From an uncultured Clostridia bacterium (GTDB lineage: Bacteria; Bacillota; Clostridia; Oscillospirales; JAAYOS01), in contig CANQDU010000006.1 in assembly GCA_947593925.1 (NCBI GenBank), positions 41,938 to 105,937 on the forward strand: DNA of 64,000 nt. The letters run 5' to 3'. Made by a program: the position numbers and the translations under genes. Shown piece by piece: positions 2,730 to 41,836 of this stretch (position 1 is its first letter; each line of letters starts with the position of its first letter). The notes beneath the pieces are model-generated. The model ran no database searches and had not been told where the DNA came from. It worked only from the letters and a program-made list of their open reading frames with translations.

Positions 2730-3794
2730 TCAGTCCGTCAGCGTGAGATACAGCGGCAGTTCATAGTCCGTTTTGTAGTCGTCCGTGAATATCGCCGTGA
2801 AGCGGTACTCGCCGCCCGGTTCGGGCGCGGAGAACCCTTGGGAGGAGGTGAGCAGTCCGTCTATGACGTTGCCGCTCATGGTATCTCCGGCGGGACCGCC
2901 CTCCGCCGTCAGGACGCTGCCCTCGATTTCCGTCCACCCGTCCCCGTCGGGCATTTCGAGCGTGCCGCCCTTTGTCAGATTGTAACAGAGCAGCTCGCCG
3001 CTGTTGGAGCGGATGAGCGTATTCAGTGCGCAGAATGTACCGCCGTTCTCCCTGTCGGAGCAGCGTCCGCCGAGCGCCAGAAGGTCGAATGCCCTGTCGC
3101 TTCTCGGTATCGTCACGTCGAAGGTTATTGAAAATAGCCTGTCGCCCGTGGTACAGTTTGCCGCGGTGTGGTCGATGTTCTCACGGAAATAGAGGGTGTA
3201 GCGGTAGATGCCGGGATCCGCAAGCGGCAGCTTCACCTGCACGGTGTTTTCGTCGCTCAGCGCGGGGACGTCCGACTCCTCGGGTGCGTTCGCCTCCAAA
3301 AGCTCGCCGAACGGGTCGTAGGGAACGGGCGTCCTCAGTCCCGCGCCGGAATATCGTGTATAACTTCCGTCCTCCCCGAGCCGTTCCACATAGCCCTCGG
3401 CGTCGGTGCGCTTGATGCTTTCGTCGGGGAGCGCTTCTCCGTCCTGATAGCGGTACGCGCTGAATGTCACCGGCATCTCGGCGTCGAATACAAACTCCAG
3501 CTCATACTCGGGTATGCTGTCATATGTGCCGCGTATCGCCGCGGGCATGAGTACGTCCGTATCCCCGGAGCACTCGCCGAGCGTCGCTCCGACGGGACCG
3601 TTTGAAAGCGTATAATGCTCCCCGACAAGACCGAAGTCGGCGCCCTCGGGCGCGGGAACGACCGTGATAGTCGAGACTGCGGACGGCGTGGGGGACGGCG
3701 GGAGCTCGACGCTCACCGTCGAATCGCCGCAGCCGGACAGCGTCAGCAAAAGTACGGCGGCAAATGCTGCCAATGTGCGGGCTCTAAACCTCAT
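2730..3794 (-). CDS. Lipoprotein of unknown function (paralog of 1..556)
   Basis: I chose the internal ATG at 3794 (MRFRARTLAAFAAVLLLTLSGCGDS, signal plus lipobox), preceded by GGAGGTA. The longer track ORF, extending to 3929, overlaps the upstream permease. Confidence 0.75.
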   Translation of the reverse strand: MRFRARTLAAFAAVLLLTLSGCGDSTVSVELPPSPTPSAVSTITVVPAPEGADFGLVGEHYTLSNGPVGATLGECSGDTDVLMPAAIRGTYDSIPEYELEFVFDAEMPVTFSAYRYQDGEALPDESIKRTDAEGYVERLGEDGSYTRYSGAGLRTPVPYDPFGELLEANAPEESDVPALSDENTVQVKLPLADPGIYRYTLYFRENIDHTAANCTTGDRLFSITFDVTIPRSDRAFDLLALGGRCSDRENGGTFCALNTLIRSNSGELLCYNLTKGGTLEMPDGDGWTEIEGSVLTAEGGPAGDTMSGNVIDGLLTSSQGFSAPEPGGEYRFTAIFTDDYKTDYELPLYLTLTD

Positions 3795-3811: not shown

Positions 3812-5677
3812 CTATTTGCCGCCCTGAAGGAGCGAGAGCGGCGACTGCTTTCCGATAATGTGCAGACCTAACGATGCGAATGCCGTCAGCAGGAAAAGAG
3901 CGCCTACCCCGAAAGCTGCCGCATGCCACGGCGAAAAACTCACACTCGCGGCTCCGCCCGAGACCTCCGCCATCGATGCGGCCAGCTTCACGGCAAAGCC
4001 GCGAAGCATCAGCGCGCCTCCGGCACAGCCCGCCGCGTCTGCTGCGGCGGCAATCGGAAGAAGACCCGCGAGCAGCGAACGTCCCGCCCGTCCGGCGGGC
4101 ACTCCCAAGGCTCTCATTATCGCGTACTCGCCCTTCCTGCGAATGATAAACAGATAGTTTATCAGGACGAGCGAGAGCAGCAGCGCCGCACTCATGGCGG
4201 CAAAGCTGACGGCGGCGCCGGTCCTCATGGAGCGGAAGGTCATCTCCACGCCGGAGTATCCCATGTCGTCTATTGCAAGCCTGTACCCGAGTTCTTCAAG
4301 CCGGCCGCTCAGCTCAAGCTCAAGGCCGCGCACGTCGCCCGGAGACTTCAGCGCGAAGCTGAAGGTCGAGGGAAAGCAGTACGGCGTGACCTCGTCTGTC
4401 CACGGATAGGCGGCCTCCGGCAGAAAGACCGTGTTCGGTGAAAACATGAGGGCGTCCGTGTCCGCCATGCCCTCGATGCCGCCGTCCCTCGGCGGCTCGG
4501 CCCAGATGCCTACCACCTCGCAGGACGTTTGCACCGGCTCGAAATTGCAAGCCGTATACTCTCCGCCGAGCAGATAAAACTCGTTCGGGTCGTATATCTC
4601 GCGGGAAATGACCCTGCCTCCGTATGCCATGGTGTTCGGTGTGGAGGTGAAGTCAACGGTATCGCCAATTTTTATCCCGTTCCGCGCAGCATACTCCGCA
4701 TTTATGACGCAGACGCTGCCGGTGTCTTTCGGGGTTATCATGCGTCCCTCCGATATGTAAAGCGTACCGTCGTGGAACCTCGGCAGCTTCGACATATCCG
4801 AGGTAAAAACCATGTCCTGCTTGTGCGCGTTTACCTCCGTTATCCTGCCGTATCTGTCCTGCATCATATAGGCGTAATCCTCGGGGCTCACCGAACCCTT
4901 TTCCTGCTCTAAAAGCGTAAGGTCGAGCAGACGGTAGGGTATATCCGGCATGAAGTTCAGGTGATGCGGTCCCGTTATCCAGACCACGTCGGCGCCTCGG
5001 AAGCCGGTGGGCGTCAGCGCCAGAACGTAGCGATGGCCTTCGATAAGCTCCTCGTATACGCCTATGTCCGACGCGCGGGGGACTATGTAGAAGGTGTGTC
5101 CGTTTGCCGGATGCTGTCGCCCGTCCTCGCCTATGTAGAATTCCGGCTCCCGGCCGGGCGGGTAGAGCTCCGGGTCTCCGGCAAGCACCTCCTCGACCTC
5201 GTAGAATATCTCGGACTGGTTCGAGCCCTTATAGGTTGTAAGACTTTTCGCTATAACTATCGCGCTGTCGGAGTGCAGGTCGATAATCGACGAGTCCTGC
5301 ACGTTCGGGTACTCCGTTATGCCGCCGGCGACATGGCAGACTTCGCACGACTCCACCCGGTCGGAAGCCGAAACAAGCCGGGCCGCCTCCGCGTCGATGG
5401 GGCAGTAGTATTGCAGCGCCTCCATAGGGCTGTCCCCAAAGGGCAGACCCGCGCCGCTCGGCTCGCGCCCGAAAAAGTCCCTATATCTTTGCTCCGTTGC
5501 GACGAGGGTGCCGACGGCGGAGTACCGTTGCTCGGCCGACGCGAGCACGCTCTCCGTAAGCTCATATTCTGCACCTCTGCTCACAAACGCGAAGGACGTC
5601 GCGGCGAGCAGTACAAAGGTCACGAGCGTTTTCAGCGGCGAACGCAAAACCGTCCACACGGAAAGCCGCGGGTTCAT
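3812..5677 (-). CDS. FtsX/MacB-family ABC transporter permease (paralog of 575..2491)
   Basis: I chose the start at ATG 5677 (MNPRLSVWTVLRSPLKTLVTFVLLAATSFAFVSRG), which follows GGAAGGAG. The N-terminal ~35 aa are nearly identical to the 575..2491 product, and it has the same C-terminal block (RRKGEYAIMRALGV). Confidence 0.8.
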   Translation of the reverse strand: MNPRLSVWTVLRSPLKTLVTFVLLAATSFAFVSRGAEYELTESVLASAEQRYSAVGTLVATEQRYRDFFGREPSGAGLPFGDSPMEALQYYCPIDAEAARLVSASDRVESCEVCHVAGGITEYPNVQDSSIIDLHSDSAIVIAKSLTTYKGSNQSEIFYEVEEVLAGDPELYPPGREPEFYIGEDGRQHPANGHTFYIVPRASDIGVYEELIEGHRYVLALTPTGFRGADVVWITGPHHLNFMPDIPYRLLDLTLLEQEKGSVSPEDYAYMMQDRYGRITEVNAHKQDMVFTSDMSKLPRFHDGTLYISEGRMITPKDTGSVCVINAEYAARNGIKIGDTVDFTSTPNTMAYGGRVISREIYDPNEFYLLGGEYTACNFEPVQTSCEVVGIWAEPPRDGGIEGMADTDALMFSPNTVFLPEAAYPWTDEVTPYCFPSTFSFALKSPGDVRGLELELSGRLEELGYRLAIDDMGYSGVEMTFRSMRTGAAVSFAAMSAALLLSLVLINYLFIIRRKGEYAIMRALGVPAGRAGRSLLAGLLPIAAAADAAGCAGGALMLRGFAVKLAASMAEVSGGAASVSFSPWHAAAFGVGALFLLTAFASLGLHIIGKQSPLSLLQGGK

Positions 5678-6029: not shown

Positions 6030-6218
6030 GATGTTGCCTGTGGAAACATCAACCGCGCGAACAGGCGCGGACGCCGCTGTCGGCGGCGTAGATGGCCGGA
6101 TGCGGTATGGGTTCGCGGGCGCATTGCCGCCGGGAAAAATAATTTGAATTTATTTCGCCGCTTACACGGCGAAACTCTGCGAGGCATTTGACAATCTGTG
6201 GCATATCGCTTCGCGACA

Positions 6219-6227
6219 TGATATAAT
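6219..6227 (+). promoter_or_regulatory. Extended -10 promoter element (TGaTATAAT) upstream of the sigma-factor gene
   Basis: TGATATAAT lies 63 nt upstream of ATG 6290. The TTGACA at 6188 is 28 nt away, too far to act as a -35. Confidence 0.45.
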
Positions 6228-6289
6228 AGCCGCATATAAAAACGGCGAAAACGGCGGCCTGCTTAAAGCCGCCGCTCGGAGAGGACACA

Positions 6290-8008: not shown

Positions 8009-8037
8009 TTGAACAGGGTGAAGCAACGTGATATAAT
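8009..8037 (+). promoter_or_regulatory. Sigma-70-type promoter TTGAAC-17-TATAAT with TG extension
   Basis: TTGAAC (8009-8014), a 17-nt spacer, and TGaTATAAT (8029-8037). The predicted TSS (~8044) falls inside the GGAGG preceding ATG 8050, so this is either a near-leaderless mRNA or a false positive. Confidence 0.4.
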
Positions 8038-8049
8038 TCGGAGGAAAAC

Positions 8050-8832
8050 ATGAGCTATCTTGAAGATTACTACAACTCCTACGACGAGGAGGGGCGGCTG
8101 CTCTCCCGCCACGGTCAGGTCGAGTATCTGACGACGATGAAGTACATACGCGAGTGCCTGTCGGGTCTCTCCGAGCCGAACATACTCGAGGTCGGAGCCG
8201 GGACGGGGCGGTACAGCGTGACGCTTGCAAAGCAGGGACTTCGCGTGACGGCGGTGGAGCTCGTCCCGCACAATCTCGAGCTGCTCCGCGCCAAGCTCGA
8301 CGGCTCGGAGCCCATCCGCGCCGTGCAGGGCAACGCCCTCGACCTGTCCTTCCTGCCGGACGACACGTTCGACCTCACGCTGCTGCTCGGGCCGATGTAC
8401 CACCTCTACACTCGCGAGGACAAGCTGCAGGCGCTCCGCGAGGCCGTTCGCGTGACGCGCAGCGGCGGGCACATCCTCGTCGCGTACTGCATGAATGAGC
8501 CGACGGTCATTCAGTATGTCTTCGGTATGAATCACCTCCGCGAGGTGATGGACCTCAACATGATTACCGACGACTGGCACTGCGTAAGCGAGCCGAAGGA
8601 TCTCTTTGAGCTGGTGAGGACGGAGGACATCGCCTCGCTCGACGCGGAGCTTCCGGCGGAGCGGATAAAGCTCGTGGCGACGGACGGCGCGACGAACTAC
8701 AAGCGCGAGTACATAGACGCCATGGACGACGAAACCTTCGCAAAGTGGATGGACTACCACTTCGCCACCTGCGAGCGCGGCGACCTCATCGGCGCGTCGC
8801 ACCACACGCTGGATATTCTGAGGAAGCTGTGA
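8050..8832 (+). CDS. Class I SAM-dependent methyltransferase
   Basis: 260 aa. It has motif I (ILEVGAGTGRYS) and an acidic residue after beta-2 (VTAVELV). Confidence 0.75.
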   Translation: MSYLEDYYNSYDEEGRLLSRHGQVEYLTTMKYIRECLSGLSEPNILEVGAGTGRYSVTLAKQGLRVTAVELVPHNLELLRAKLDGSEPIRAVQGNALDLSFLPDDTFDLTLLLGPMYHLYTREDKLQALREAVRVTRSGGHILVAYCMNEPTVIQYVFGMNHLREVMDLNMITDDWHCVSEPKDLFELVRTEDIASLDAELPAERIKLVATDGATNYKREYIDAMDDETFAKWMDYHFATCERGDLIGASHHTLDILRKL

Positions 8833-8888
8833 CTGTAGCGGCGCAGAAAACGTGAATTGTTGAGTATTGATCGGAGGCGAAACACACA

Positions 8889-9566
8889 ATGGGCACAAAA
8901 GTTGCGGGTATTCACTTTTTGACGCGGGAGCCGGCGAAGCTCCTGCCGGAGTTGGAGCGAAAATTCGGCAAAGCGCCCGAGCCGGGTGACAGGGACAGAG
9001 CCATGATGGCGCTCCTCCGCTCTATGGCGGAGAAGGAGATCCGGGAGACAAGCTCCGACGAGAAGGAGCGGGCAGAAAAAACCGCGCTTCTGGACGCGGC
9101 CATGGAAAAAGCCTTCCGTGAGGCCGAAGAGGATCGCGCGGTGATGGTTCTCCGTCCCGGCGCGGTGAGCCTCTACTGGTACGGCCACATCCGCACGGAG
9201 AACATGGAGCGGGAAGCCAAGGAGTACGCCAAAGCGCTGGGCGTCCCGGTTCTCGGTCTGGGTGTGTACGACGACACTAACGCGGTGTTGTGCGCAGCCG
9301 ACGGCCAGAGCGTCTGCCGAGGACTCTACTGGTTTGACGAGGACGACGTCGAGCCCGCCGACCCGGCGGCTTTCTGCACTCTGCTCGGGTGTGAGGACAG
9401 GACCGAGGCCGTGGTCGAAGCTCTGCAACACAGGGAGGCGGAGCCGATGGTTCGGGCATTGGAGAAGATATTCGGCATCGACCTGTATCTTGACGCGGAC
9501 ATGTGCCGGGAGCGGCGCTGCGAGGAGATTGCTTCATGGCCGGGCGCGGACGTGTTCCGCGTTTGA
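8889..9566 (+). CDS. Hypothetical protein
   Basis: 225-aa ORF on the gene strand with host-like composition. I recognised no motif. Confidence 0.5.
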   Translation: MGTKVAGIHFLTREPAKLLPELERKFGKAPEPGDRDRAMMALLRSMAEKEIRETSSDEKERAEKTALLDAAMEKAFREAEEDRAVMVLRPGAVSLYWYGHIRTENMEREAKEYAKALGVPVLGLGVYDDTNAVLCAADGQSVCRGLYWFDEDDVEPADPAAFCTLLGCEDRTEAVVEALQHREAEPMVRALEKIFGIDLYLDADMCRERRCEEIASWPGADVFRV

Positions 9567-9618
9567 TCGGGCAGGCGAAAACTGGAAAAGTGTCGGGCGT
9601 GCGGGGAGCGGGCACAGA

Positions 9619-9647
9619 TTGATTTTTGCACCCGATTATGGTACACT
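9619..9647 (+). promoter_or_regulatory. Sigma-70-type promoter TTGATT-17-TACACT with TG extension, upstream of the methyltransferase/nuclease pair
   Basis: TTGATT (9619-9624), a 17-nt spacer, and TGgTACACT (9639-9647). It lies ~50 nt upstream of ATG 9698. Confidence 0.5.
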
Positions 9648-9697
9648 ATTATAAAAGAACACGACAATACATATCGAGAGCCGAAAGGACAGGAACG

Positions 9698-10822
9698 ATG
9701 GCTAATAAGAACGCAAATCTTAATGCTGCGGCAAAAGCCAAAAAGGATGAGTTTTATACCCAGCTTACGGACATCGAAAAAGAACTGCGGCATTACAGAC
9801 AGCATTTCAAAGGGAAAACGGTGCTTTGCAACTGCGACGACCCATTTGAGAGCAATTTCTTCAAGTATTTTGTCCTGAACTTCAACCGTTTGGGTCTGAA
9901 AAAACTGATCGCCACTTGCTATGCCGGTTCTCCCATAGCGAACAAACAGCTTTCGATTTCTGCCGTTTTGGGTGAAGTAGAAGAAATATCAAACAAGCCA
10001 TATAAAGCGGTAGTTACGACTGTATATGACAAATCGGGTGACGGCGGCGTGGATATGTTCGATGTTGCCGAGCTGTTCAAGTCCGGGGAAAATGAGCTGT
10101 CGGAGTTGGAGGGTGACGGCGATTTTCGCTCGCCCGAATGTCTGGCTTTATTGGATGAAGCGGATATTGTTGTTACAAATCCGCCGTTTTCGCTGTTCAG
10201 AGAATATGTTACAACGTTATTAGAACATGAAAAGTTATTTGTAATCATTGGAAGTTTTAATGCAATTACATATAAGGAAATATTCCCTTTGTTGCGTGAC
10301 AACAAAATATGGCTTGGTATGGGTTTTCAAAACGGTAATGCATATTTCCGAATTCCAGAAGAAAATGCCCGTGAATTTGCTCAAGGCGTTTACGATCCAG
10401 AATCGGGATTTGTTCACTTCAGAAATTGCACTTGGTTTACAAATCTCGACATTAAAAAGCGTCACGAGGAAATGATTTTAGTCAAACGCTATCAGCCTGC
10501 TCTTTACCCCAAATATGATAATTACGATGCGATTGAAGTCAGTAAAACAGCCGATATTCCGTGTGATTATTCCGGTGTTATGGGGGTGCCGATTACTTTT
10601 CTTGATAAATATTGCCCGGATCAGTTCGAGATAGTAGGTATGGCAAAACGTGGTGCCGGAGATCCGGCGCTAAAGTCTCACGTTTACACAAAGGATGAAT
10701 ATCCGAATTATAGTGATTTAAATGCCACTCCTACATTGTGGATTGACGGCAAACTGAAAAATACATATCCGCGTATTTTAATCCGCAACAAGCACCCCGA
10801 AGCGCCGAGGGAGGTAAAATGA
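9698..10822 (+). CDS. N6-adenine DNA methyltransferase (EcoRI-methylase-like family, NPPF catalytic motif)
   Basis: I chose the internal ATG 9698 ([22 protein letters not shown]), preceded by AAAGGACAGGA. Motifs are [13 protein letters not shown] (SAM pocket) and [10 protein letters not shown] (motif IV). The gene is visibly AT-richer than its surroundings. Confidence 0.8.
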
Positions 10823-10823
10823 G

Positions 10824-11930
10824 ATGCAGATAGAAGAACTGAAAGTCACGGTCGGCGAGGTGTACGAGGGCTATTTCAATGACGCGGAGGAGGGTGTTGT
10901 CGGCTATAACGGACTGCTCGACATCCGCCCAAGGTATCAGCGGGAATTTGTATACAGGGACGCACAACGGGACGAAGTCATCCGCACGGTGATGAAGGGT
11001 CTGCCCCTCAATGTAATCTATTGGTGCAAGGTAAAGAAGGAGAACGGTTCCGAAGGGTTTGAGGTGCTGGACGGCCAACAGCGCACGATCTCCCTGTGCG
11101 AATATGTGGACGGGTCCTTCTCTGTAGACGATAAGTATTTCTACAACCTGCCGTCCGACCGGAAAGAGAAGATTTTGAACTACCCCCTGTTTGTATATGT
11201 CTGCGACGGCTCGGACAGCGAAAAGCTTGATTGGTTCCGCATCATCAATATTGCCGGGGAACAGCTCACCGATCAGGAGCTGCGGAACGCCGTCTATGCC
11301 GGCAGCTGGACTTCCGACGCAAAGCGGTATTTCTCCAAAACCGGGTGCGCCGCGGACACGCTGGCGGGCGATTATCTCAAGGGCGTTTCCATCCGGCAGG
11401 AATATCTCGAAACGGCGATATTTTGGGCGGCAAGCGCCGAGGGAAAGAGCATCGAAGGCTATATGGCGGAGCGTCAGGACCTCCCAAGCGCCGTGCAGCT
11501 CTGGAACTATTTCCGCTCGGTCATTGACTGGGTACAGGCCATTTTCCCGAAGAAGCGCAGGGAGATGAAAGGGCTGCCGTGGGGACTGTTCTATAACCGG
11601 CACGGCAAGCGGACAGACCTTGACCCGCGAAAGCTGGAGATTGAAATTCAGCGGCTGATGGGTGATGAGGACGTAACAAGGAAATCCGGCATCTATGAAT
11701 ATCTGCTGACCGGCGACGAAAGGAAACTGTCGATACGCGCTTTTGACCGGCGGGATGCTCTCGCGGCCTACGAAAAGCAAGGTCACAAATGCGCGATTTG
11801 CGGCGAAGCCTTCGAGTTTGAGGAGATGCACGCCGACCATATCACGCCATGGAGCAGGGGAGGCAAAACGACGCCGGATAACTGCCAGATGCTGTGCCGT
11901 GACTGTAATTTAAAGAAAGGCGCGCAGTAA
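10824..11930 (+). CDS. DUF262 (ParB/GmrSD-like N-terminal domain) plus C-terminal HNH nuclease
   Basis: 368 aa. It has the DUF262 hallmarks [10 protein letters not shown] and LDGQQR. The C-terminal HNH is [44 protein letters not shown]. The ATG lies 1 nt after the methyltransferase stop, with GAGGGAGG embedded in the upstream gene. Confidence 0.8.
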
Positions 11931-11950
11931 AGAAATAGATAAAGTGACGT

Positions 11951-11981
11951 TATAGCATATCGCTCCGCGATATGCTATAAT
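11951..11981 (+). promoter_or_regulatory. Perfect 13-bp-arm palindrome overlapping an extended -10 (TGcTATAAT)
   Basis: The palindrome TATAGCATATCGC-TCC-GCGATATGCTATA spans 11951-11979 and TGCTATAAT spans 11973-11981. It lies 20 nt after the HNH gene stop and 41 nt before ATG 12022. It could be a terminator for the upstream pair, an operator or promoter for the GTPase gene, or both. Confidence 0.5.
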
Positions 11982-12021
11982 ATTTTCAGCATCAATCTTG
12001 TGTGCCGGGAGGTGATACAGC

Positions 12022-14646
12022 ATGGATAATTCAGCGCCGCGCGCCGCGAGGCGCGTCTGCGTCGGACTGCTCGCGCATGTGGACGCGGGCAAGACCACGC
12101 TCAGCGAGGCGCTGCTCTACACGAGCGGCAGCCTGCGGAAGCTGGGGCGCGTCGATCACGGAGATGCGTTCCTCGACAACGACGTGCAGGAGCGCGAGCG
12201 CGGCATCACCATATTCTCAAAGCAGGCCATGCTGTACCTCGAAAACACGGAGATGACGCTTCTCGATACCCCCGGCCACGTCGATTTCTCGGCGGAGATG
12301 GAGCGCACGCTCGGCGTCCTCGACTGCGCGATACTCGTCATCAGCGGCTCGGACGGCGTGCAGGGTCACACGAGGACGCTCTGGCGCCTGCTCGAGCGGT
12401 ACGGCGTGCCGACCTTCATATTCGTAAACAAGATGGACCTCCCCGGCACCGACCGCGGCCGCGTCCTCGAAGGACTGAAGCGCGCGCTCGGCGACGGCTG
12501 TATAGACTTTTCTGCGGACGTCCGCGCGCGGGACGAGGCCGTCGCCATGACGGACGAGGCGGCGCTCGAAGAATTTCTTGCGTCGGGCGTGGTGCCGGAC
12601 GCACGGACGGCGGCGCTCATAGCCGCGCGGAAGGTGTTCCCGTGCTGGTTCGGTTCGGCGCTGAAACTCGAGGGCGTGGAGGAGTTTCTGCGCGGCGTCG
12701 AGACCTACGCGCCCTCGCCGGAGTACCCGGAGGAGTTCGGCGCGAAGGTCTTCAAGGTGTCGCGGGACGCAAAGAACGTCCGCCTCACATGGATGAAGAT
12801 AACCGGCGGAACGCTCCGCGCGAAGGCGCAGCTCTCGCACGGCGAGGGCGAGGACGCATGGGAGGAGAAGGCGGATCAGCTCCGCCTGTACTCCGGTGTG
12901 AAATTTACGACGTTCGAGGAGGCGGAGGCCGGCTCGATAGTCGCCGTGACCGGGCTCACGCGGACGTATCCCGGCGAGGGGCTCGGCGCTGAGCGGGACA
13001 ATCCCGAAGCGGTGCTCGAGCCGGTGCTGAACTACCGGCTGATCCTGCCGGAGGGGACAGACCCGGCGACAGTCCTCCCAAAGCTCAGACAGCTCGAGGA
13101 GGAGGACCCGATGCTCCGGGTGCTCTGGAACGATCAGTGGAAGGAGATAAACGTCCGCCTGATGGGCGAGGTGCAGCTTGAGGTGCTTCAGCGCCTCATC
13201 GCGGACAGGTTCGATATAGAGGCGGACTTCGACACCGGCAGCATCCTCTACAAGGAGACGATAGCGAACCGCGTGGAGGGCGTCGGCCACTTCGAACCGC
13301 TCCGACACTATGCGGAGGTGCATCTTCTGATGGAGCCCGGTCCGCGCGGGAGCGGCGTCCGGGTGGACACCGACTGTCCGCAGAGCCGGCTCGACTTCAG
13401 CTGGCAGAGGCTCATACTCACGCATCTGCTCGAGCGCGAGCACCCCGGCGTGCTCACCGGCTCACCGATAACCGACGTGAAGATAACGCTCGTCGCGGGC
13501 GCGGCGAGCGTCAAGCACACCGAGGGAGGCGACTTCCGTCAGGCGACCTACCGCGCGGTGCGTCAGGGACTCATGCAGGCGGAGAGCGTCCTGCTCGAAC
13601 CGTTCTACGACTTCCGCCTAGAGCTTCCTCCGCAGAATGTCGGCCGCGCCATGACCGACATACAGGGAATGGGCGGCAGTGTGGACGACCCGTCCTCGGA
13701 GGGCGAGATGACCGTCCTCACCGGCTTCGCGCCGGTCGCGGGGCTCCAGGACTACTGGCGCGAGGTGACGGCGTACACGCGCGGCCTCGGGCGGCTCTCC
13801 TGCTCCTTTAGGGGCTACGAGCCGTGCGGGAACGCGGAGGAGGTCGTCGCCGCGATAGGCTACGACCCGGAGCGCGATACCGAAAACCCCGCCGACTCGG
13901 TGTTCTGCGCGCACGGCGCGGGCTTTAACGTCAAGTGGGACAAGGTCCCGGAGTATATGCACATTGAGGGACTGCGCCTTGAGCAGGAGCAGCAGCCCGA
14001 GGAGCAGGCGGCGCCGTCCGCTCCGGCGCACCGGGTGTACGCGACGTCGTTTGAGCAGGACAAGGAGCTGAAGTCCATCTTCGAGAAGACCTACGGCAAG
14101 GTGGAGTACAAGGCGTGGGAACCGGCAAGGAGCCCCGCCCGCACGAGCATCAGCGACTCGTACTCGAAGCGCGGCGTCGGCGCGAGGAAGGCGGAGGGGC
14201 CGGAGTACCTGCTTGTGGACGGCTACAACATCATCTTTGCGTGGGACGAGCTCCGCGAGGTCGCAAAGACGGACATCGCCGCCGCACGGTCGATGCTCGA
14301 GGACATCCTCGCAAACTATCGGGGGTTCCGGAAGTGCGTCGTGATACTCGTCTTTGACGCATACAAGGTGAAGGGCAACCCCGGCTCGGTCGAGAAGCGG
14401 CACGGAATATATATCGTCTACACCAAGGAGGCCGAGACCGCCGACACATATATAGAAAAGACGACCTATCGGATAGCGAAGGACCATCCGGTGCGCGTCG
14501 CCACGTCGGACGGGCTCGAGCAGGTGATAATCCTCGGCCACGGCGCGCTCCGGATAAGCGCGGAGACCTTTCGCGCGGAGGTGGCGGCGACGCAGGTGCG
14601 CATAGACGAGATAATCGCCGAGTACAACCGCAGGGGAAAGAAGTAA
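12022..14646 (+). CDS. TetM/EF-G-family translational GTPase fused to a C-terminal YacP/Rae1-like NYN ribonuclease domain
   Basis: 874 aa. GTPase motifs are G1 AHVDAGKTT, G2 RGITI, G3 DTPGH and G4 NKMD, followed by EF-G-like domains II-V. After a low-complexity linker, the last ~170 aa (EYLLVDGYNIIFAW...VVILVFDAYKVKG...ETADTYIE...VRVATSDGLEQVI..GA.RISA) match the YacP/Rae1 NYN pattern. Confidence 0.8.
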   Translation: MDNSAPRAARRVCVGLLAHVDAGKTTLSEALLYTSGSLRKLGRVDHGDAFLDNDVQERERGITIFSKQAMLYLENTEMTLLDTPGHVDFSAEMERTLGVLDCAILVISGSDGVQGHTRTLWRLLERYGVPTFIFVNKMDLPGTDRGRVLEGLKRALGDGCIDFSADVRARDEAVAMTDEAALEEFLASGVVPDARTAALIAARKVFPCWFGSALKLEGVEEFLRGVETYAPSPEYPEEFGAKVFKVSRDAKNVRLTWMKITGGTLRAKAQLSHGEGEDAWEEKADQLRLYSGVKFTTFEEAEAGSIVAVTGLTRTYPGEGLGAERDNPEAVLEPVLNYRLILPEGTDPATVLPKLRQLEEEDPMLRVLWNDQWKEINVRLMGEVQLEVLQRLIADRFDIEADFDTGSILYKETIANRVEGVGHFEPLRHYAEVHLLMEPGPRGSGVRVDTDCPQSRLDFSWQRLILTHLLEREHPGVLTGSPITDVKITLVAGAASVKHTEGGDFRQATYRAVRQGLMQAESVLLEPFYDFRLELPPQNVGRAMTDIQGMGGSVDDPSSEGEMTVLTGFAPVAGLQDYWREVTAYTRGLGRLSCSFRGYEPCGNAEEVVAAIGYDPERDTENPADSVFCAHGAGFNVKWDKVPEYMHIEGLRLEQEQQPEEQAAPSAPAHRVYATSFEQDKELKSIFEKTYGKVEYKAWEPARSPARTSISDSYSKRGVGARKAEGPEYLLVDGYNIIFAWDELREVAKTDIAAARSMLEDILANYRGFRKCVVILVFDAYKVKGNPGSVEKRHGIYIVYTKEAETADTYIEKTTYRIAKDHPVRVATSDGLEQVIILGHGALRISAETFRAEVAATQVRIDEIIAEYNRRGKK

Positions 14647-14696
14647 ATAACCGCGGGTCATGCCGCGGAAAAAACAAAATATTCAGGAGGGATACC

Positions 14697-16019
14697 ATGG
14701 TAAAGATCACATTCATGGGCGCGGGGAGCACGGTGTTTGCAAAGAACGTCCTCGGCGACTCGATGCTCTCGCCCGCGCTGCACGACGCGGAGATCGCGCT
14801 TTACGACATCGACGCGGAGCGTCTCGAGGAGAGCTTCCTTCTCATCACCCGCATGAACGAGAATATCAACGGCGGGCGCGCGAAGGTGGAGAAGTACCTC
14901 GGCGTGGAGAACCGCCGCGCGGCGCTCAAAGGCGCGAAGTTCGTCATAAACGCGATACAGGTCGGAGGATACGAGCCCTGTACCGTCATAGACTTCGAGG
15001 TGCCGAAGAAGTACGGCCTACGCCAGACGATAGGCGACACGCTCGGCATCGGCGGCATCTTCCGCGCGCTCCGCACGATAGCCGTCATGCGCGGCTTTGC
15101 GGAGGACATCGAGGCGGTCTGCCCGGACGCGTGGCTTCTGAACTACACGAACCCCATGGCGATGCTCACCGGCTACATGCTCCGCTATACCGGCGTGAAG
15201 ACCGTCGGCCTCTGCCACAGCGTTCAAGTCTGCTCGGAGGGACTTCTGCGCGGTCTCGGCATGGAGGATAAGCTGGAGGGACGCATCGAGACGATAGCGG
15301 GCATAAACCACATGGGGTGGCTCCTTGACATACGCGACAGGGACGGCAACGATCTCTATCCCGAGATACGCCGCCGCTCTAAGGAGCGGAACGCCCGCGA
15401 GAAGCACGGCGACATGGTGCGCTACGACTACATCGACAAGCTCGGCTACTACTGCACCGAGTCGAGCGAGCACAACGCCGAGTACAACTACCTCTACATA
15501 AAGGAGAACCGCCCGGAGCTCATCGAGAAGTTCAACATCCCGCTCGACGAGTATCCGCGCCGCTGTATAAATCAGATAGCGGGCTGGAAGAAGCAGAAGG
15601 AGGAGCTGATGGCGGGCGGAGACGTCACGCACACCCGCTCCACCGAGTACGCCTCGCACATCATGGAGGCGATGGTGACCGGCGTGCCCTACAAGATAGG
15701 CGGCAACGTCCTCAACCGCGGGCTCATCACGAACCTGCCGGACGAGGCGTGCGTCGAGGTCGCGTGCATGGTCGATAACGGCGGCGTCCATCCGACGTTT
15801 GCGGGCGCACTGCCGACGCAGCTCGCCGCGATGAATATGACAAACATCAACGTCCAGCTCCTCACCGTCGAGGCGGCGCACGAGCGGAGCATGGAGCACG
15901 TCTACCACGCGGCGATGCTCGACCCGCACACCGGCAGCCAGCTCTCCACCGACGAGATAGTGTCGCTCTGCGACGAACTCCGCGCGGCGCACGAGGCCGC
16001 GGGGTATCCGATATTCTAA
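14697..16019 (+). CDS. melA: Glycoside hydrolase family 4 alpha-galactosidase/alpha-glucosidase (NAD-dependent)
   Basis: 440 aa. The N-terminal Rossmann motif (KITFMGAGSTVFAKNVLGD) and overall length are typical of MelA/AglA GH4 enzymes. Confidence 0.75.
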   Translation: MVKITFMGAGSTVFAKNVLGDSMLSPALHDAEIALYDIDAERLEESFLLITRMNENINGGRAKVEKYLGVENRRAALKGAKFVINAIQVGGYEPCTVIDFEVPKKYGLRQTIGDTLGIGGIFRALRTIAVMRGFAEDIEAVCPDAWLLNYTNPMAMLTGYMLRYTGVKTVGLCHSVQVCSEGLLRGLGMEDKLEGRIETIAGINHMGWLLDIRDRDGNDLYPEIRRRSKERNAREKHGDMVRYDYIDKLGYYCTESSEHNAEYNYLYIKENRPELIEKFNIPLDEYPRRCINQIAGWKKQKEELMAGGDVTHTRSTEYASHIMEAMVTGVPYKIGGNVLNRGLITNLPDEACVEVACMVDNGGVHPTFAGALPTQLAAMNMTNINVQLLTVEAAHERSMEHVYHAAMLDPHTGSQLSTDEIVSLCDELRAAHEAAGYPIF

Positions 16020-16047
16020 TAATGCGGGCGAAGCCCGCCGCCTCTTT

Positions 16048-16896
16048 GCGGGGATTGCATCCCCACCCCTCTAGCGGGGAAGCCCCGCGAGCATTCGCGG
16101 GGTGACCCCCGCGTCCCTAAGTGAGGCAGAGCCTCACCGGTACCATGCGGGGGCTGCGCCCCCGCGCCCCGCGTTACTTTTTGCTTGTGCAAAAAGTAAC
16201 CAAAAAGCACACAAAGGGGAGAAAACCAACGGTTTTCTCCCCTTTGTACCCCTCTTTCCTTAATCGGAAAGGCTCTGCCACGCGGGACACCCGTGCGTAG
16301 CTTAGTACAAGCGTCCACGCTCATACTTTCCACTAGAACCGAAAGTCCCGTTTTCTCGGGATAGCCTCTGCATTACGCTTATAGTGTGAGCGTAGGACCG
16401 GACTTTTGTTTCTACTACGCAGGAACTGTTCGATGTCGTCGAATACAGTGGGAAAGTCGGATATTGTCACCCCGGAAACTCACCCGGTCGGACGATAGAT
16501 TTGTTCGATACGGAGTTATGCCCTGTTATGTGGGTCGTGGTGTTGTGTCTGTATTCAGGAGAGGGATTTTTAAGGGAGAGGGCGGAGCCCTCTCCCTTAA
16601 GCGCGCTTTTTGGATACTTTTTGCGCGAGCAAAAAGTAGCGCAGGGGTGCGGGGCGGCACAGCCCCGCGAAGGTAGTGGTGAGGCTCTGCCTCACTTAGG
16701 GACGCGGGGGTCACCCCCGCGAATGCTCGCGGGGCTTCCCCGCTGGATGGGTGTGGGCTTTGCCCACAGATGGGGTGCGGGGCGGCACAGCCCCGCGAAG
16801 GTAGTGGTGAGGCTCTGCCTCACTTAGGGACGCGGGGGTCACCCCCGCGAATGCTCGCGGGGCTTCCCCGCCGGAGGGGTGGGGCACAAGCCCCAC
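16048..16896 (-). repeat. Composite repeat element, copy A (inverted relative to copies B and C)
   Basis: The left arm (16048-16250) and right arm (16552-16896) are mirror-image arrays of short GC hairpins. The conserved ~300-bp core (16251-16551) aligns by hand with the reverse complement of 23161-23458 and 34400-34697. Confidence 0.85.
16644..16871. repeat. Tandem duplication (two identical 100-bp units, 128-bp period) inside the right arm of copy A
   Basis: The unit GGGGTGCGGGGCGGCACAGCCCCGCGAAGGTAGTGGTGAGGCTCTGCCTCACTTAGGGACGCGGGGGTCACCCCCGCGAATGCTCGCGGGGCTTCCCCGC occurs at 16644-16743 and again at 16772-16871. Confidence 0.9.
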
Positions 16897-23751: not shown

Positions 23752-26700
23752 TTACTGCTCCTTGATGGCGTTTCCTCCCCATATGCCCTCGTTTATGAGC
23801 ACGAAATTGTTGATGCCGCCGGTGAAGATATTTCCGTTGTTGACAACTCTGCCGTAATTTCTCAGCTCGCCGTAAGAGAACTCCGTGCGAGCCTCGTTGG
23901 TAAACGTCGAGCCCGGGTCCAGAACCAGATTTCCGCCCACCCGAAGATGGCTGTGGTTGACAAACGAGCTGCTGATGCTGTAGTCATGACAGATCTCGCC
24001 GTCCAATGCCATATACCCGAAGTTTTCGACCGGAGCCGCCAGATGCGTTTTGGCGTTGAGGCTTACGGAACCGTAGTTTGTAAGCCTGCCCGGCCCCTGC
24101 GTGTCAAGGCCCGCGGCGATCAGCCGTCCCGCTTCCCCGATGACGATGTTGGCATTCGTACTCATGCTCGCGCTCAGGAGTATGCCGCCGCTGTCAACGG
24201 AGATCACGCTTCCGGCCTGCATTTCTACGGGAATAAGGGTATACGCCATAGAATTGTTCGTTACCGTCAACTCGCCGCAAAGGGTGATAAAGTTGCTGTC
24301 GTACAGCCGGGAGTCATCGGTGACGGTTATGGCGCCGCCGTTGAGGCGTATCGGCCCGTTAACTTCGCATGCGGAACCGCCGGAAATGACAAGGTCTCCG
24401 CCGCCCGTCAGATCCAGCCTCGGAACATTCTCATTAGGGTCATCGCCGCAGCCTACGGCCAGGAACGCCCCGTCCGTAATGCGGACTCCGCCGGCTCGGA
24501 CAATTCCTCCGCTGATATCTGCTATGCCTCCCGTGACCGTCAGCGTGCCGGTCACGTTCAGCGTGCCGGCGTAAACAGCGAGATCCGTCTCCACTGTCAG
24601 GTCGCCGTCTATCGTAATATCTCCTGCCACTTGGATGCCGTCGCTGCCGGACGCCATGGCAAGCAGCGTCTCCGCGTCGGTTACGGGAACAACCTCATTC
24701 TCTATCCATCTGCGCACGAACTGCCGGCAGTCCCCGTCCTTGTTGAGCGTGTCCCACGCGGCTGCGGCGTTTCCATCTTCATAGAAGACTATTCCGCCGT
24801 GTATCTGCCCGTCGCCGGAGGTGGCAACGCACCCGGCCGGGTCAGTAATCGTTCCGCTGACGTTTTTGAGATCGCCCGTTACCGTCGTGGGTCCGCAGCT
24901 TTTGATATTTCCGGAGTTCCAGCCGTTGCCAAAGACAGCCGTACCGAAGTTACAAACCGTCGAAGCGCCCTGCAGAGAGAAGCCGCCATTGTCAAAGTCG
25001 CCGCCCAGCTCAAGCTCGCCGATATTAAATACTGTGACGAATGCATCCAGCACGAACGCTAACCCTGCGTCTGCCCGGTGCTCCGGGTTTGCGGACAGCT
25101 TCCCGCAGTTTATCAGAAATCCCGAGTGGATGTTCAGGTTCTGCGGATACATGCCGCCCTGATTGAGTAAAAGGGGCATGTCCCAGAAGTCGATGTTGCC
25201 CATTTCTACTGCGGTTCCGTCGTTGACGGTCCCGCTGTTGACAAACAGGTCGCCTTCAAGCACATGTATTTTTATCGACTCGGATATGACGCCGCGGTTC
25301 ACCAGAGCACGGTTGATGAACAGATTCGCGTCGCCGGTGACGGTCGCGTTCTCGCTGATAAGGAGCGGGCCGCTGAAATAGTAATCACCGCTGAGGCTGA
25401 TGTCGCCGTCGATAGCGACCAGCCTGCCGCTTATCGCGGCGTTCCTGAGCACGCCCTCGTCCGTGACGTAGTCGGCGTTCTCAAAGGCTTTGTCCTCGTC
25501 TAAGACAAAGAAGTTCATATCGTCGGGCATCGGCGAGCCGTCCTCTATGGCAAAGTCGGAGCTGTCCGCGACCCACAGAACGATGCCCTCCGCAATGTAT
25601 CCGTCGCTCGTGCGTGTCAGCTTGCCGCCGTTGCGGGTGCGGATAAACCCACCCTCGCCTTCGACACGGTCGACAAGAAGACCCGACCCCTCGCCGTTCA
25701 CGGTGATAACTCCGCCGTTCAGCCTTAAAACGCCGTAAAATTCCGACTCGGCGGATATCTGCACGTCGCCGGAGGTCACCTCGCATCCGCCGTGTACGAC
25801 GACCGGCTTTGTGATGTTGAGCGACTCGTCCAGACGGAGAGCCTGGTCTCCGCTGTATACCACGGAGGAATACGCATTGTCGTCTGTCAGATACGCGATA
25901 AACTGATCCGCGTCGTAGGCGATAACTTCTCCGCCGTCGTTGCCGTTTGTGCCGCTGTCCGCCTGTTCTTCGCTGACCGGCTTGTGCGTAGGCACCGACG
26001 AATACGTTGACGTGGGCTCGGTAACCGGTGGCGCGCTCGGGCTTGCTTCACCTCTGCTGCCGAGAGTGATGCCGAGCGTCACGCCGAGCACCGCCAGAAC
26101 TGCCGCCGCCGCGGCGCCGATTTTGAAAATGAGATTTTTTCGGGGTTCAGGCGGCGGCACCTGCTTTTGCCATCCGGAGTAAAGCTTGACGTCCGATGTG
26201 ACCGTGAGCTCCTTCAGCGGCTTGGTGCAGGCCGAATCGGTGTACCATCCGAGGAAAGTGTACCCCTTCTTTATCGGAACGGGGAGCTCCGACGCCTTCA
26301 GCACGTCGCCCTTGGCGACAGAAAGCTCCGTATTCTCGTCCCCGCCGGTGAGGTAGACGGACACCACGCCCTCATAGAGCGCCGTGTGGAATTCCTTTGC
26401 GGACTGGAACCGTTCCCTCGGCTGTACCCTCAGAGCGCGCAGTATAGCCTGCTCCTGCCCCTGGGACAGCTCCGCGCCGAGCTTTCTCGGAGGGATAAGC
26501 TCGTCCTGGAAGAGGCGGTCCATGGCCTGAGGAGGCTTCTTGCCGGTGATACAGTAGTAAATGGTCGCCGCGAGCGCGTAGACGTCCGTCCACGCGCCCT
26601 GCGCGCCGCTCGAGGACTGGTACTGCTCCAGCGGCGCATATCCGTGCCGGAGCATGATGGTCATGGTGGCGTCGCCGTCTACCGCCTCGCGGGCGCACCC

Positions 26701-27360
26701 GAAGTCGAGCAGCTTGATTATGCCGTGCTCGAGCATGAGGTTATCCGGGCTGATGTCCCGATGGATAAGCCCCAGATCGTGCATGGCGGAAAGAGAATCA
26801 AAGAGCGGCTCGATTATGTGCAGCAGTTCCCACGCCGGCAATACGCCGCCCCGCTGCTTTGTCAGCTCGCTCAACGTCGTTCCGTCGATGAACTCCATGA
26901 CTATGTAGGCGGTGGAGTTCTCTTCAAAGAAGTCCCTGACGCCGACTATGTTCGGCAGCCGGTCCAGCCTCGCCATGGTTCGGGCCTCCTGCAGGAAGCG
27001 CTGTTTTCCGCGCTCGAAGAAGCTGTTATTCGAGCCCAGAAAGTTATCCACGTTGGTAGATACCGCGCTGTTTCTGGTGGCCTTGTCGGTGGGGAAGTAT
27101 TCCTTTACGGCCACCTTCAGGCCGAGGACCATGTCCCGGCCTATGTAGGTGATGCCGAAGCCGCCCTCTCCGAGGACCCTGCCAAGCATATATCGGTCCC
27201 GGAGCACCGTGCCGGCCGGCAGATGCTTCGGCTGCGCTACGTAGCTTCCCGCCGTGAGCCCGCAGCAGGGACACGGCTTATCGCCCTCCACCTGCGACAT
27301 GCAGTACGGGCAGTATTCCGCCTGCGCAGTGTTTCCGTGCTCTTCTATATCCGGAGTCAT
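23752..27360 (-). CDS. Membrane Ser/Thr protein kinase: N-terminal zinc ribbon, Hanks kinase, Listeria-Bacteroides-repeat-like module, TM, ~770-aa repeat-rich ectodomain
   Basis: 1202 aa. Motifs are CPYC..CPCC, the Gly loop GEGGFGITY, VAVKEY, HRDISPDN, DFG and GYAPLEQY. GYTFLGWYTDS occurs before the TM (IFKIGAAAAAVLAVLGVTLGITLG). The C-terminal part is rich in short G/N/V/T repeats suggesting a beta-helix. Confidence 0.85.
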   Translation of the reverse strand: MTPDIEEHGNTAQAEYCPYCMSQVEGDKPCPCCGLTAGSYVAQPKHLPAGTVLRDRYMLGRVLGEGGFGITYIGRDMVLGLKVAVKEYFPTDKATRNSAVSTNVDNFLGSNNSFFERGKQRFLQEARTMARLDRLPNIVGVRDFFEENSTAYIVMEFIDGTTLSELTKQRGGVLPAWELLHIIEPLFDSLSAMHDLGLIHRDISPDNLMLEHGIIKLLDFGCAREAVDGDATMTIMLRHGYAPLEQYQSSSGAQGAWTDVYALAATIYYCITGKKPPQAMDRLFQDELIPPRKLGAELSQGQEQAILRALRVQPRERFQSAKEFHTALYEGVVSVYLTGGDENTELSVAKGDVLKASELPVPIKKGYTFLGWYTDSACTKPLKELTVTSDVKLYSGWQKQVPPPEPRKNLIFKIGAAAAAVLAVLGVTLGITLGSRGEASPSAPPVTEPTSTYSSVPTHKPVSEEQADSGTNGNDGGEVIAYDADQFIAYLTDDNAYSSVVYSGDQALRLDESLNITKPVVVHGGCEVTSGDVQISAESEFYGVLRLNGGVITVNGEGSGLLVDRVEGEGGFIRTRNGGKLTRTSDGYIAEGIVLWVADSSDFAIEDGSPMPDDMNFFVLDEDKAFENADYVTDEGVLRNAAISGRLVAIDGDISLSGDYYFSGPLLISENATVTGDANLFINRALVNRGVISESIKIHVLEGDLFVNSGTVNDGTAVEMGNIDFWDMPLLLNQGGMYPQNLNIHSGFLINCGKLSANPEHRADAGLAFVLDAFVTVFNIGELELGGDFDNGGFSLQGASTVCNFGTAVFGNGWNSGNIKSCGPTTVTGDLKNVSGTITDPAGCVATSGDGQIHGGIVFYEDGNAAAAWDTLNKDGDCRQFVRRWIENEVVPVTDAETLLAMASGSDGIQVAGDITIDGDLTVETDLAVYAGTLNVTGTLTVTGGIADISGGIVRAGGVRITDGAFLAVGCGDDPNENVPRLDLTGGGDLVISGGSACEVNGPIRLNGGAITVTDDSRLYDSNFITLCGELTVTNNSMAYTLIPVEMQAGSVISVDSGGILLSASMSTNANIVIGEAGRLIAAGLDTQGPGRLTNYGSVSLNAKTHLAAPVENFGYMALDGEICHDYSISSSFVNHSHLRVGGNLVLDPGSTFTNEARTEFSYGELRNYGRVVNNGNIFTGGINNFVLINEGIWGGNAIKEQ

Positions 27361-41758: not shown

Positions 41759-41836
41759 ATGGACAAAAAAGTTAAATTGTCGGAACACCTGACGACGATT
41801 TGCTTGTATGTATACGAAATGAGGTGTTATCTATGA
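41759..41836 (+). CDS. Candidate 25-codon upstream ORF translationally coupled to the 1762-aa SLH protein gene
   Basis: AAAGGAG lies 7 nt upstream of ATG 41759. The product is MDKKVKLSEHLTTICLYVYEMRCYL. Its TGA (41834-41836) overlaps the ATG (41833-41835) of the large gene as ATGA. There is no homology evidence. Confidence 0.3.
   Translation: MDKKVKLSEHLTTICLYVYEMRCYL

Follow-up and report, generated by a model that had tools for sequence, protein, structure and literature searches.

A BanLI-type restriction-modification cassette of an uncultured Clostridia bacterium: a constant DUF262-HNH nuclease beside a mosaic methylase that may set its specificity

The 64,000-nucleotide (nt) stretch of DNA analysed here (hereafter the window) comes from an uncultured Clostridia bacterium (GenBank assembly GCA_947593925.1, contig CANQDU010000006.1, positions 41,938 to 105,937 of the forward strand). 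It carries a confirmed two-gene restriction-modification (R-M) cassette, in which the gene of an N6-adenine DNA methyltransferase (methylase) is followed by the gene of a DUF262-HNH nuclease. This cassette is a member of the BanLI-type R-M family; its architecture is not new and BanLI is the sole named member of the family. The mechanism of the family is uncharacterised, and the interest of the cassette rests on this mechanism and on comparative signals rather than on the cassette itself. Taken together, the data favour, with a probability of about 0.55, a reading of the family as R-M systems in which the methylase sets the specificity and the nuclease acts as the effector. The features of the cassette are as follows.

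9619 to 9652, + strand: candidate promoter in the 131-nt intergenic region 5' of the methylase gene (9/12 matches in a consensus scan; sequence reading).
9684 to 9689, + strand: ribosome-binding site (RBS) AAAGGA, 8 nt 5' of the methylase ATG (sequence).
9698 to 10822, + strand: EcoRI-family (gamma-class order) N6-adenine DNA methyltransferase, 374 aa (Pfam, PADLOC, comparison with BanLI).
9935 to 9997, + strand: variable segment V1, about residues 80-100 (column conservation 0.54 versus 0.9 in the flanks).
10178 to 10189, + strand: catalytic motif IV NPPF, residues 161-164 (N161, P162, P163 and F164 invariant in 63 homologues).
10304 to 10426, + strand: variable segment V2, about residues 203-243, presumed part of the target-recognition surface (conservation 0.45-0.56).
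10649 to 10771, + strand: variable segment V3, about residues 318-358, presumed target-recognition module (conservation 0.18-0.36).
10809 to 10826, + strand: coupling junction, made of an RBS GGGAGG (10809-10814) within the methylase gene, the TGA stop, 1 nt and the nuclease ATG (sequence).
10824 to 11930, + strand: nuclease of 368 aa (368 codons), with DUF262 (ParB/Srx-like NTP-binding fold), a helical middle part and a C-terminal zinc-ribbon HNH nuclease domain (Pfam, PADLOC, AlphaFold2 model).
11070 to 11084, + strand: DGQQR motif of the ParB/Srx domain, residues 83-87 (homologue alignment).
11790 to 11924, + strand: HNH domain, residues 323-367, with His339 (11838-11840), Asn353 and Cys323/Cys358 (Pfam HNH).
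11949 to 11987, + strand: likely cassette terminator, in which a perfect 15-bp stem closes a 3-nt loop and AUAUUUU comes next (RNA fold, exact palindrome).

The methylase start ATG 9698, which is preceded by an RBS and is also picked by gene callers on identical contigs, is preferred to TTG 9626, which merely gives the longest open reading frame (ORF). The TGA stop (10820-10822) and the nuclease ATG (10824) are separated by a single G; co-transcription and translational coupling of the two genes are directly supported. Two putative alternatives can be read for the promoter: TTGATT at 9619-9624 with TGgTACACT, or TTTGCA and TATTAT with a spacer of 16 nt. The hairpin of the likely terminator has a folding energy of -21.2 kcal/mol (z=-4.2). 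At 11949-11981 it is also one of a family of small palindromic elements, a diverged copy of which lies at about 6201-6234, 5' of a sigma-factor gene; two copies of the same element (6125-6164 and 6234-6272) are found 3' of the nuclease gene in the related locus L001, described below. The neighbouring genes of the window encode a sigma factor, a methyltransferase of the small-molecule type that uses S-adenosylmethionine (SAM), one further protein and an EF-G-like GTPase. No tRNA is found at the window cassette and no integrase or transposase is encoded by the adjacent ORFs.

The methylase matches the full Pfam profile EcoRI_methylase (PF13651, E=7e-143) and, over its full length, the PADLOC model MTase_II (PDLC03297, E=7e-124). 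Its prediction as a SAM-dependent N6-adenine methyltransferase with an intact NPPF motif is directly supported. The nuclease matches GmrSD_N/DUF262 (PF03235, E=2e-18) at residues 34-158 and HNH (PF01844, E=1e-15) at residues 323-367, while no DUF1524 is detected in it by Pfam at E<=0.01. Its HNH region also matches PDB entry 4h9d (E=1.4e-6). With the PADLOC model REase_II (PDLC03418, E=7e-151, residues 1-366 of 368), the REBASE-derived Type II models cover both window proteins end to end. Among 70 homologues (down to 37% identity), D83, G84, R87, Q39, R40, C323 and N353 are invariant, and Q85, Q86, H339 and C358 are at least 90% conserved. An intact nucleotide-binding motif of the ParB/Srx type (QR...DGQQR) and an intact HNH active site are thus directly supported by the predicted protein. 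The AlphaFold2 model of the nuclease (predicted local distance difference test score, pLDDT, of 93.6) has BrxU (7p9k, E=4e-5) as its best solved fold match, with a low global template modelling (TM) score (0.21); the next matches of the model are the Gme HNH nicking enzyme, ParB-CDP, Noc and sulfiredoxin (Srx).

A previous reading of this DNA from its letters alone (the sequence-only reading) had described an EcoRI-methylase-like N6-methyladenine (m6A) methyltransferase whose stop lies 1 nt from the ATG of a protein combining a DUF262 domain (DGQQR) with a C-terminal HNH, the RBS of the second gene being embedded in the first; all of this is borne out by the profile matches and the junction given above. 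Its cassette was drawn from position 9619, which belongs to the intergenic/promoter region and not to the genes; the end at 11930 is that of the nuclease gene. The same reading called the whole cassette low-GC. This applies to the methylase gene, whose GC content is 0.422 (0.43 at third codon positions, GC3) versus 0.61-0.65 (GC3 0.77-0.87) in the four neighbouring genes, but the nuclease gene is at 0.550 (GC3 0.70), and only the methylase gene is strongly AT-rich. The horizontal origin suggested by this low GC stands only in part: about 500 nt within the methylase gene were recently exchanged (see below), but the cassette occupies the same site in L001 and a methylase gene richer in AT than its partner is a trait of the family.

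The BanLI locus of Bifidobacterium animalis was retrieved (as L088) by an exact search of metagenome contigs with a published cloning primer; the same primer scan of viral contigs gave no match. L088 is BanLI, as all four published primers map there and the computed masses of the two proteins (41.68 and 43.55 kDa) agree with the published ones (41.68 and 43.5 kDa). R.BanLI and the window nuclease are 60% identical from end to end (E=1e-165). M.BanLI also shares 60% identity with the window methylase (E=8e-152), the differences being concentrated in three segments. BanLI and the window cassette thus encode the same pair of proteins in identical order, the junction being a TAATG overlap in BanLI, and in both cases the GC content of the genes is below that of the host. 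They differ by V1, V2 and V3 of the methylase, and by the integrase gene that is found upstream in BanLI and is absent from the window. Because these three segments differ from those of M.BanLI, the recognition site of the window system is probably not RTCAGG. The forward primer published for 'RM.BanLI' lies on the ATG of the upstream integrase gene and not on that of the methylase gene (L088 2200-5817); therefore, the construct of the 2014 plaque assay carried the integrase gene together with both R-M genes.

In the original 2014 paper, M.BanLI was aligned with M.EcoRI and was found by single-molecule real-time (SMRT) data to mark RTC(m6A)GG on one strand only; the cloned BanLI locus reduced P1vir plaquing about 10-fold and BanLI pre-methylation increased plasmid uptake 1.8-fold (PMC3990576). 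A gene annotated 'DUF262 domain-containing protein' is the REBASE Type II enzyme Ban8145ORF124P (RTCAGG) (2026 paper, PMC13091528). According to the sequence-only reading, its proposal would be refuted if REBASE already listed this architecture as a characterised Type II system. This is largely the case, as indicated by the PDLC03418 match, although BanLI is named but only partly characterised, without cleavage site and without in vitro activity. The pair is not described in the papers on GmrSD phylogenomics, Menshen, Domainator or Gardnerella R-M systems, nor in the EcoSal review, and the literature searched yielded no mechanistic study of the family and no repeat survey of such Type II methylases.

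Close relatives of the pair are encoded by 501 stretches of a collection of species-representative genomes. Among the best 80, an EcoRI-family methylase gene is directly upstream of the nuclease gene in all 76 testable loci, the four others being untestable since the contig ends less than 200 nt from the nuclease gene. Likewise, in 80 loci from viral or prophage contigs, whose nucleases are 48-87% identical to that of the window, the methylase gene is adjacent in 78/78 testable cases, with the nuclease gene first only once. Junctions of -14 to +3 nt with a conserved GGAGG are found in about 58 of the 66 complete genome pairs; the mode of the viral junctions is -4. Down to 37% identity, the pair also occurs on plasmids from Aeromonas, Mammaliicoccus, Variovorax, lactobacilli and enterococci and in one Flavobacterium phage. 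An exhaustive profile-free search (E<=1e-30) returned 459 cluster representatives at 50% identity, nearly all of 360-410 aa, and the family comprises more than 8000 clusters at 90% identity. Its hosts include gut Firmicutes, Actinobacteria, Bacteroidota, Lentisphaerae and spirochaetes. Across the loci compared, the pairing of methylase and nuclease is obligate and ancient. Some unusual arrangements were observed. In L021 (910-2331, - strand), a 473-aa gene of opposite orientation separates the methylase gene from the nuclease gene, and in P0285 (688 aa) an EcoRI-family methylase domain is fused in frame to a DUF262-HNH nuclease in a single protein. The seeming fusions or atypical junctions of L165 and L170 are artefacts, a stop codon being present.

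Across the 66 complete genome pairs, the nuclease has a mean identity of 86% (minimum 76%), with even conservation along its length. Its nonsynonymous divergence is low (pN 0.10) whereas its synonymous sites are saturated (pS 0.86; dN/dS about 0.04), and this conservation therefore reflects selection and not recent spread alone. An antisense ORF of 369 aa (10731-11840, - strand) was considered as a cause of this conservation and rejected: it is interrupted in loci of low GC, stays open only in those of high GC, and is a codon-bias artefact. By contrast, the mean identity of the methylase is 64%, the deficit being located in V1, V2 and V3 (in this comparison about residues 80-100, 200-245 and 316-360 of the window methylase), while its core is as conserved as the nuclease. 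V1 (18 types by length and sequence) has a low pLDDT. V2 falls into 15 discrete types and has the lowest GC3 within the methylase gene. V3, bordered on one side by a conserved GVMGVPITF...QFEI, falls into 37 discrete types of 31-72 aa; in relatives, it is this module that undergoes duplication or frame switching. There are 47 combinations of V2 and V3, and the same V3 is seen with different V2. In 42 pairs of loci, the nucleases are at least 95% identical, yet V2 and V3 are both of different type; in the extreme pair, L005/L012, the identity of the nucleases reaches 99.5%.

The methylase gene has a lower GC content than the nuclease gene in 62/62 genome loci (by a mean of 7.4 points) and in 70/78 viral loci, whereas the GC content of the nuclease gene is about that of the flanks (0.484 vs 0.487). 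The lower GC of the methylase gene is a trait of the family rather than a sign that it reached this genome recently; it could plausibly result from methylase segments imported repeatedly out of a low-GC pool. One exchange of this kind can be seen by comparison of the window with L001, a locus from a metagenome-assembled genome of an uncultured Clostridia bacterium that is syntenic with window positions 8037-16668. The DNA identity is 93-96% in the flanking genes, 96% in the nuclease gene and 97% at both ends of the methylase gene, but falls to 70% in V1, 81% between V1 and V2 and 49% in V2. This synteny and the 93-97% identity elsewhere indicate that the cassette was inherited in place and that about 500 nt within the methylase gene, V1 and V2 included, were replaced.

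Several relatives may switch methylase modules while retaining a single nuclease. Six loci (L068 2709-5001, L074, L075, L077, L079 and L080) possess two tandem methylase genes before one nuclease gene. In their N-terminal half, the tandem genes, both of the EcoRI family, have at least 300 nt in common at 99% DNA identity, before they diverge in V2/V3; one of these two combinations is found by itself in another locus. Four loci from three taxa have a methylase gene interrupted by a perfect (GACA)n tract (L065, L064, L063 and L033), the contigs of the last three beginning within the repeat. In these four loci, two further copies of the C-terminal module are found 3' of the tract, and all three frames past the repeat are open, each ending in a different module. 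In L065 (4300-5000, repeat at 4500-4554), the frames end, just before a stop codon, with ...YARIVIRRKNKM, ...YKRILIRRKM or ...YKRLFVRRRA; a linker of about 75 codons, overlapping the frame of another module, leads to the last of these. Such loci might switch between three specificities beside a single constant nuclease. Similarly, an (AG)12 tract at 3756-3779 lies inside V3 of L107 (3600-4010), where three nested tails, one per frame, each end in the family motif Y-x-R-[IL]-x-I-R, the last one stopping just before the nuclease ATG. L130 carries (CGGCA)12 at 2865-2924, about 60 nt 5' of the methylase start. In L154, the methylase ORF is broken into two frames by a G11 tract at 3149-3159 and the nuclease gene is intact; the break represents an OFF state or else a sequencing error in the homopolymer. 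Finally, L072 (3044-4422) has an intact nuclease gene, a methylase gene cut to its last 95 codons or so, and genes resembling those of ABC transporters upstream; its nuclease may be an orphan.

A nuclease that reads a fixed sequence alone could not tolerate a methylase that changes or loses its specificity. For this reason, recognition-domain shuffling and repeat-driven switching are features of systems of Types I, III, IIG and ISP, in which methylation and cleavage depend on a common recognition module. To our knowledge, one-strand methylation of an asymmetric site is also known only from systems of this kind. A constant nuclease, a variable or switching methylase and a one-strand mark together lead us to infer that specificity resides in the methylase subunit, while the DUF262-HNH protein acts as a constant and probably nucleotide-gated effector. 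The following model can then be proposed. The window methylase would mark host DNA at a short site of its own, set by V1-V3, and the nuclease would attack DNA that lacks this mark. The nuclease would read no site itself and would borrow its specificity from the methylase, probably within a complex of both proteins, while the ParB/Srx domain would probably be an NTP-dependent switch that licenses cleavage by HNH. The position of the methylase gene in front, with coupled translation, would keep protection ahead of restriction. This would be a logic similar to that of Type III systems, built from different parts. An R-M function of the family is highly probable, whereas the odds that specificity is determined by the methylase, as the sequence comparisons suggest, are roughly even. 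It is proposed with still more reserve that BanLI-type pairs form an unrecognised class of R-M systems distinct from Type II, with the methylase as sole exchangeable specificity subunit marking one strand, the ParB/Srx-NTPase-HNH protein as nucleotide-switched cutter and, in some members, three-way switching by repeat frame.

The sequence-only reading had first proposed an unconventional R-M pair in which DUF262-HNH replaces a PD-(D/E)xK endonuclease. The general idea is retained, but a nuclease that reads the site itself fits poorly with a constant nuclease and a variable methylase. This first proposal, which is also how REBASE and PADLOC file the pair, is that of a classical Type II system (IIP or IIS), where DUF262-HNH would recognise on its own the sequence of the methylase and be blocked by m6A there. 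Separate genes for the two activities in the usual tight operon, the full-length match to a model labelled Type II REase and the filing of BanLI as Type II (PMC13091528) agree with this explanation. It is nevertheless unlikely, since 95-99.5% identical nucleases stand beside methylases with unrelated V2 and V3, and since segments are replaced between close relatives only within the methylase. Such a near-invariant nuclease, beside unrelated, reshuffled or phase-variable methylase segments, argues against a nuclease that reads its own site. Furthermore, with an independent enzyme, three-way switching of the C-terminus, or a methylase split by G11 upstream of an intact nuclease, would be suicidal, and the one-strand mark of BanLI leaves one daughter duplex with an unmethylated site after replication (PMC3990576). 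Another explanation that we regard as improbable to a similar degree is a nuclease without sequence specificity, acting outside any complex, whose ParB/Srx domain would sense the m6A of the host and govern HNH, as proposed for SspE with phosphorothioate. A constant nuclease working with any methylase allele, a DUF262 domain common to SspE and GmrSD/BrxU and an invariant NTP-binding motif would all suit it. However, diversified or phase-switched recognition segments would be of little benefit if any m6A sufficed, Dam-methylated P1 is still restricted 10-fold by BanLI in Escherichia coli (PMC3990576), and sensing of m6A by DUF262 is without direct evidence.

The sequence-only reading had also considered a modification-dependent Type IV nuclease, similar to GmrSD, travelling with an orphan methylase. 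Although the N-terminal domain matches GmrSD_N and the best solved fold match is BrxU, this is very unlikely: an EcoRI-family methylase is linked, with translational coupling, in 154/154 testable loci, the nuclease has no DUF1524 and only 368 aa (about 580 for BrxU), and methylation by M.BanLI was mildly protective, raising and not lowering plasmid uptake. Hardly more probable is that the cassettes are mainly epigenetic switches or selfish addiction modules, in which restriction is vestigial and a changing specificity (phasevarion) is what is selected. The weak restriction by BanLI and the repeat tracts of several methylase genes of the family point in this direction, but very strong purifying selection acts on the nuclease, which retains all its catalytic residues, is still intact in the phase-variable loci, and belongs, in the window, to a cassette without repeat tract. 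Several points weigh against a methylase-set specificity itself. The single methylase gene of the window carries no repeat tract. The authors of the BanLI study considered the system as a degenerate Type IIS that has lost its second methylase (PMC3990576). The biochemistry of the family is confined to the BanLI motif, the 10-fold drop in plaquing and the 1.8-fold effect on transformation. The role of V1-V3 as determinants of sequence specificity is presumed; the EcoRI methylase family has no solved structure, and the fold search for the methylase was empty. Fusions of the two proteins were rejected as evidence of a complex, because motif IV of P0285 is FPSF instead of NPPF and P0384 looks frameshifted. 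Lastly, L072 and L154 come from single metagenomic assemblies, where a homopolymer error or a protecting methylase encoded elsewhere is possible.

The annotation of the family is limited to 'DUF262 protein' plus 'EcoRI-family methylase', and its members are filed as Type II. Should specificity be set by the methylase, this family would be misclassified by annotation pipelines, and a ParB-like nucleotide switch would join helicase-like motors among the devices that couple site recognition to cleavage. A conserved nuclease would then be retargetable by swapping short methylase segments, which would be useful for enzyme engineering. BanLI-type systems are transformation barriers in gut anaerobes and bifidobacteria, and knowledge of the methylase motif allows pre-methylation of plasmids. 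The comparative signals make the Type III-like mechanism directly testable.

Some other genes of the window deserve mention. Next to the cassette (12022-14646, + strand) is encoded a protein of 874 aa that combines a full EF-G/TetM-like GTPase (GTP_EFTU and EF-G domains II-V) with a C-terminal YacP-like NYN nuclease domain and is conserved in L001 and L090. Two giant surface proteins of 1773 aa (41800-47121, + strand) and 3322 aa (48391-58359, + strand) bear SLH domains at the C-terminus together with Listeria-Bacteroides repeats; Calx-beta and YDG domains are also present in the larger one. In a protein of 1202 aa (23752-27360, - strand), a Ser/Thr kinase domain at the N-terminus is accompanied by a Listeria-Bacteroides repeat.

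Among known systems, Type III systems (Mod/Res, such as EcoP15I) are a mechanistic analogue of BanLI-type pairs and not a relative; their side of the comparison is established knowledge. In both, the methylase gene comes first of the two, the recognition region of the methylase varies and the nuclease subunit is conserved. Type III systems methylate one strand of an asymmetric site, as BanLI does, and repeat tracts are found in some BanLI-type methylase genes as well. However, Mod is a beta-class methylase whereas that of the window belongs to the EcoRI family, and Res combines a superfamily 2 (SF2) helicase-like ATPase with PD-(D/E)xK whereas the window nuclease contains only GmrSD_N and HNH according to Pfam.

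GmrSD and BrxU share with the window nuclease an N-terminal DUF262 domain with DGQQR and a C-terminal His-Me finger nuclease, but the latter is DUF1524 in an enzyme of about 580 aa, instead of a Pfam HNH in 368 aa. Moreover, GmrSD enzymes stand alone and need modified cytosines, whereas nucleases of the window type are always paired with a methylase. SspE, from SspABCD-SspE, resembles the window nuclease by its DUF262 NTPase domain joined to a nicking nuclease and by a partner that marks self on DNA; it differs by its DUF1524 and by a partner that makes phosphorothioate and not m6A, and no ssp genes are found in the window. M.EcoRI and the window methylase belong to the same Pfam family (E=7e-143 for the latter), but R.EcoRI (PD-(D/E)xK) is unrelated to the window nuclease, and the site of BanLI, unlike that of EcoRI, is asymmetric and methylated on one strand. 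Enzymes of the MmeI type (Type IIL) and Type ISP enzymes protect an asymmetric site by m6A on one strand and use one recognition module for methylation and cleavage, as we propose for the window system; these are single polypeptides with PD-(D/E)xK, whereas the window system consists of two proteins and cuts, by prediction, with HNH.

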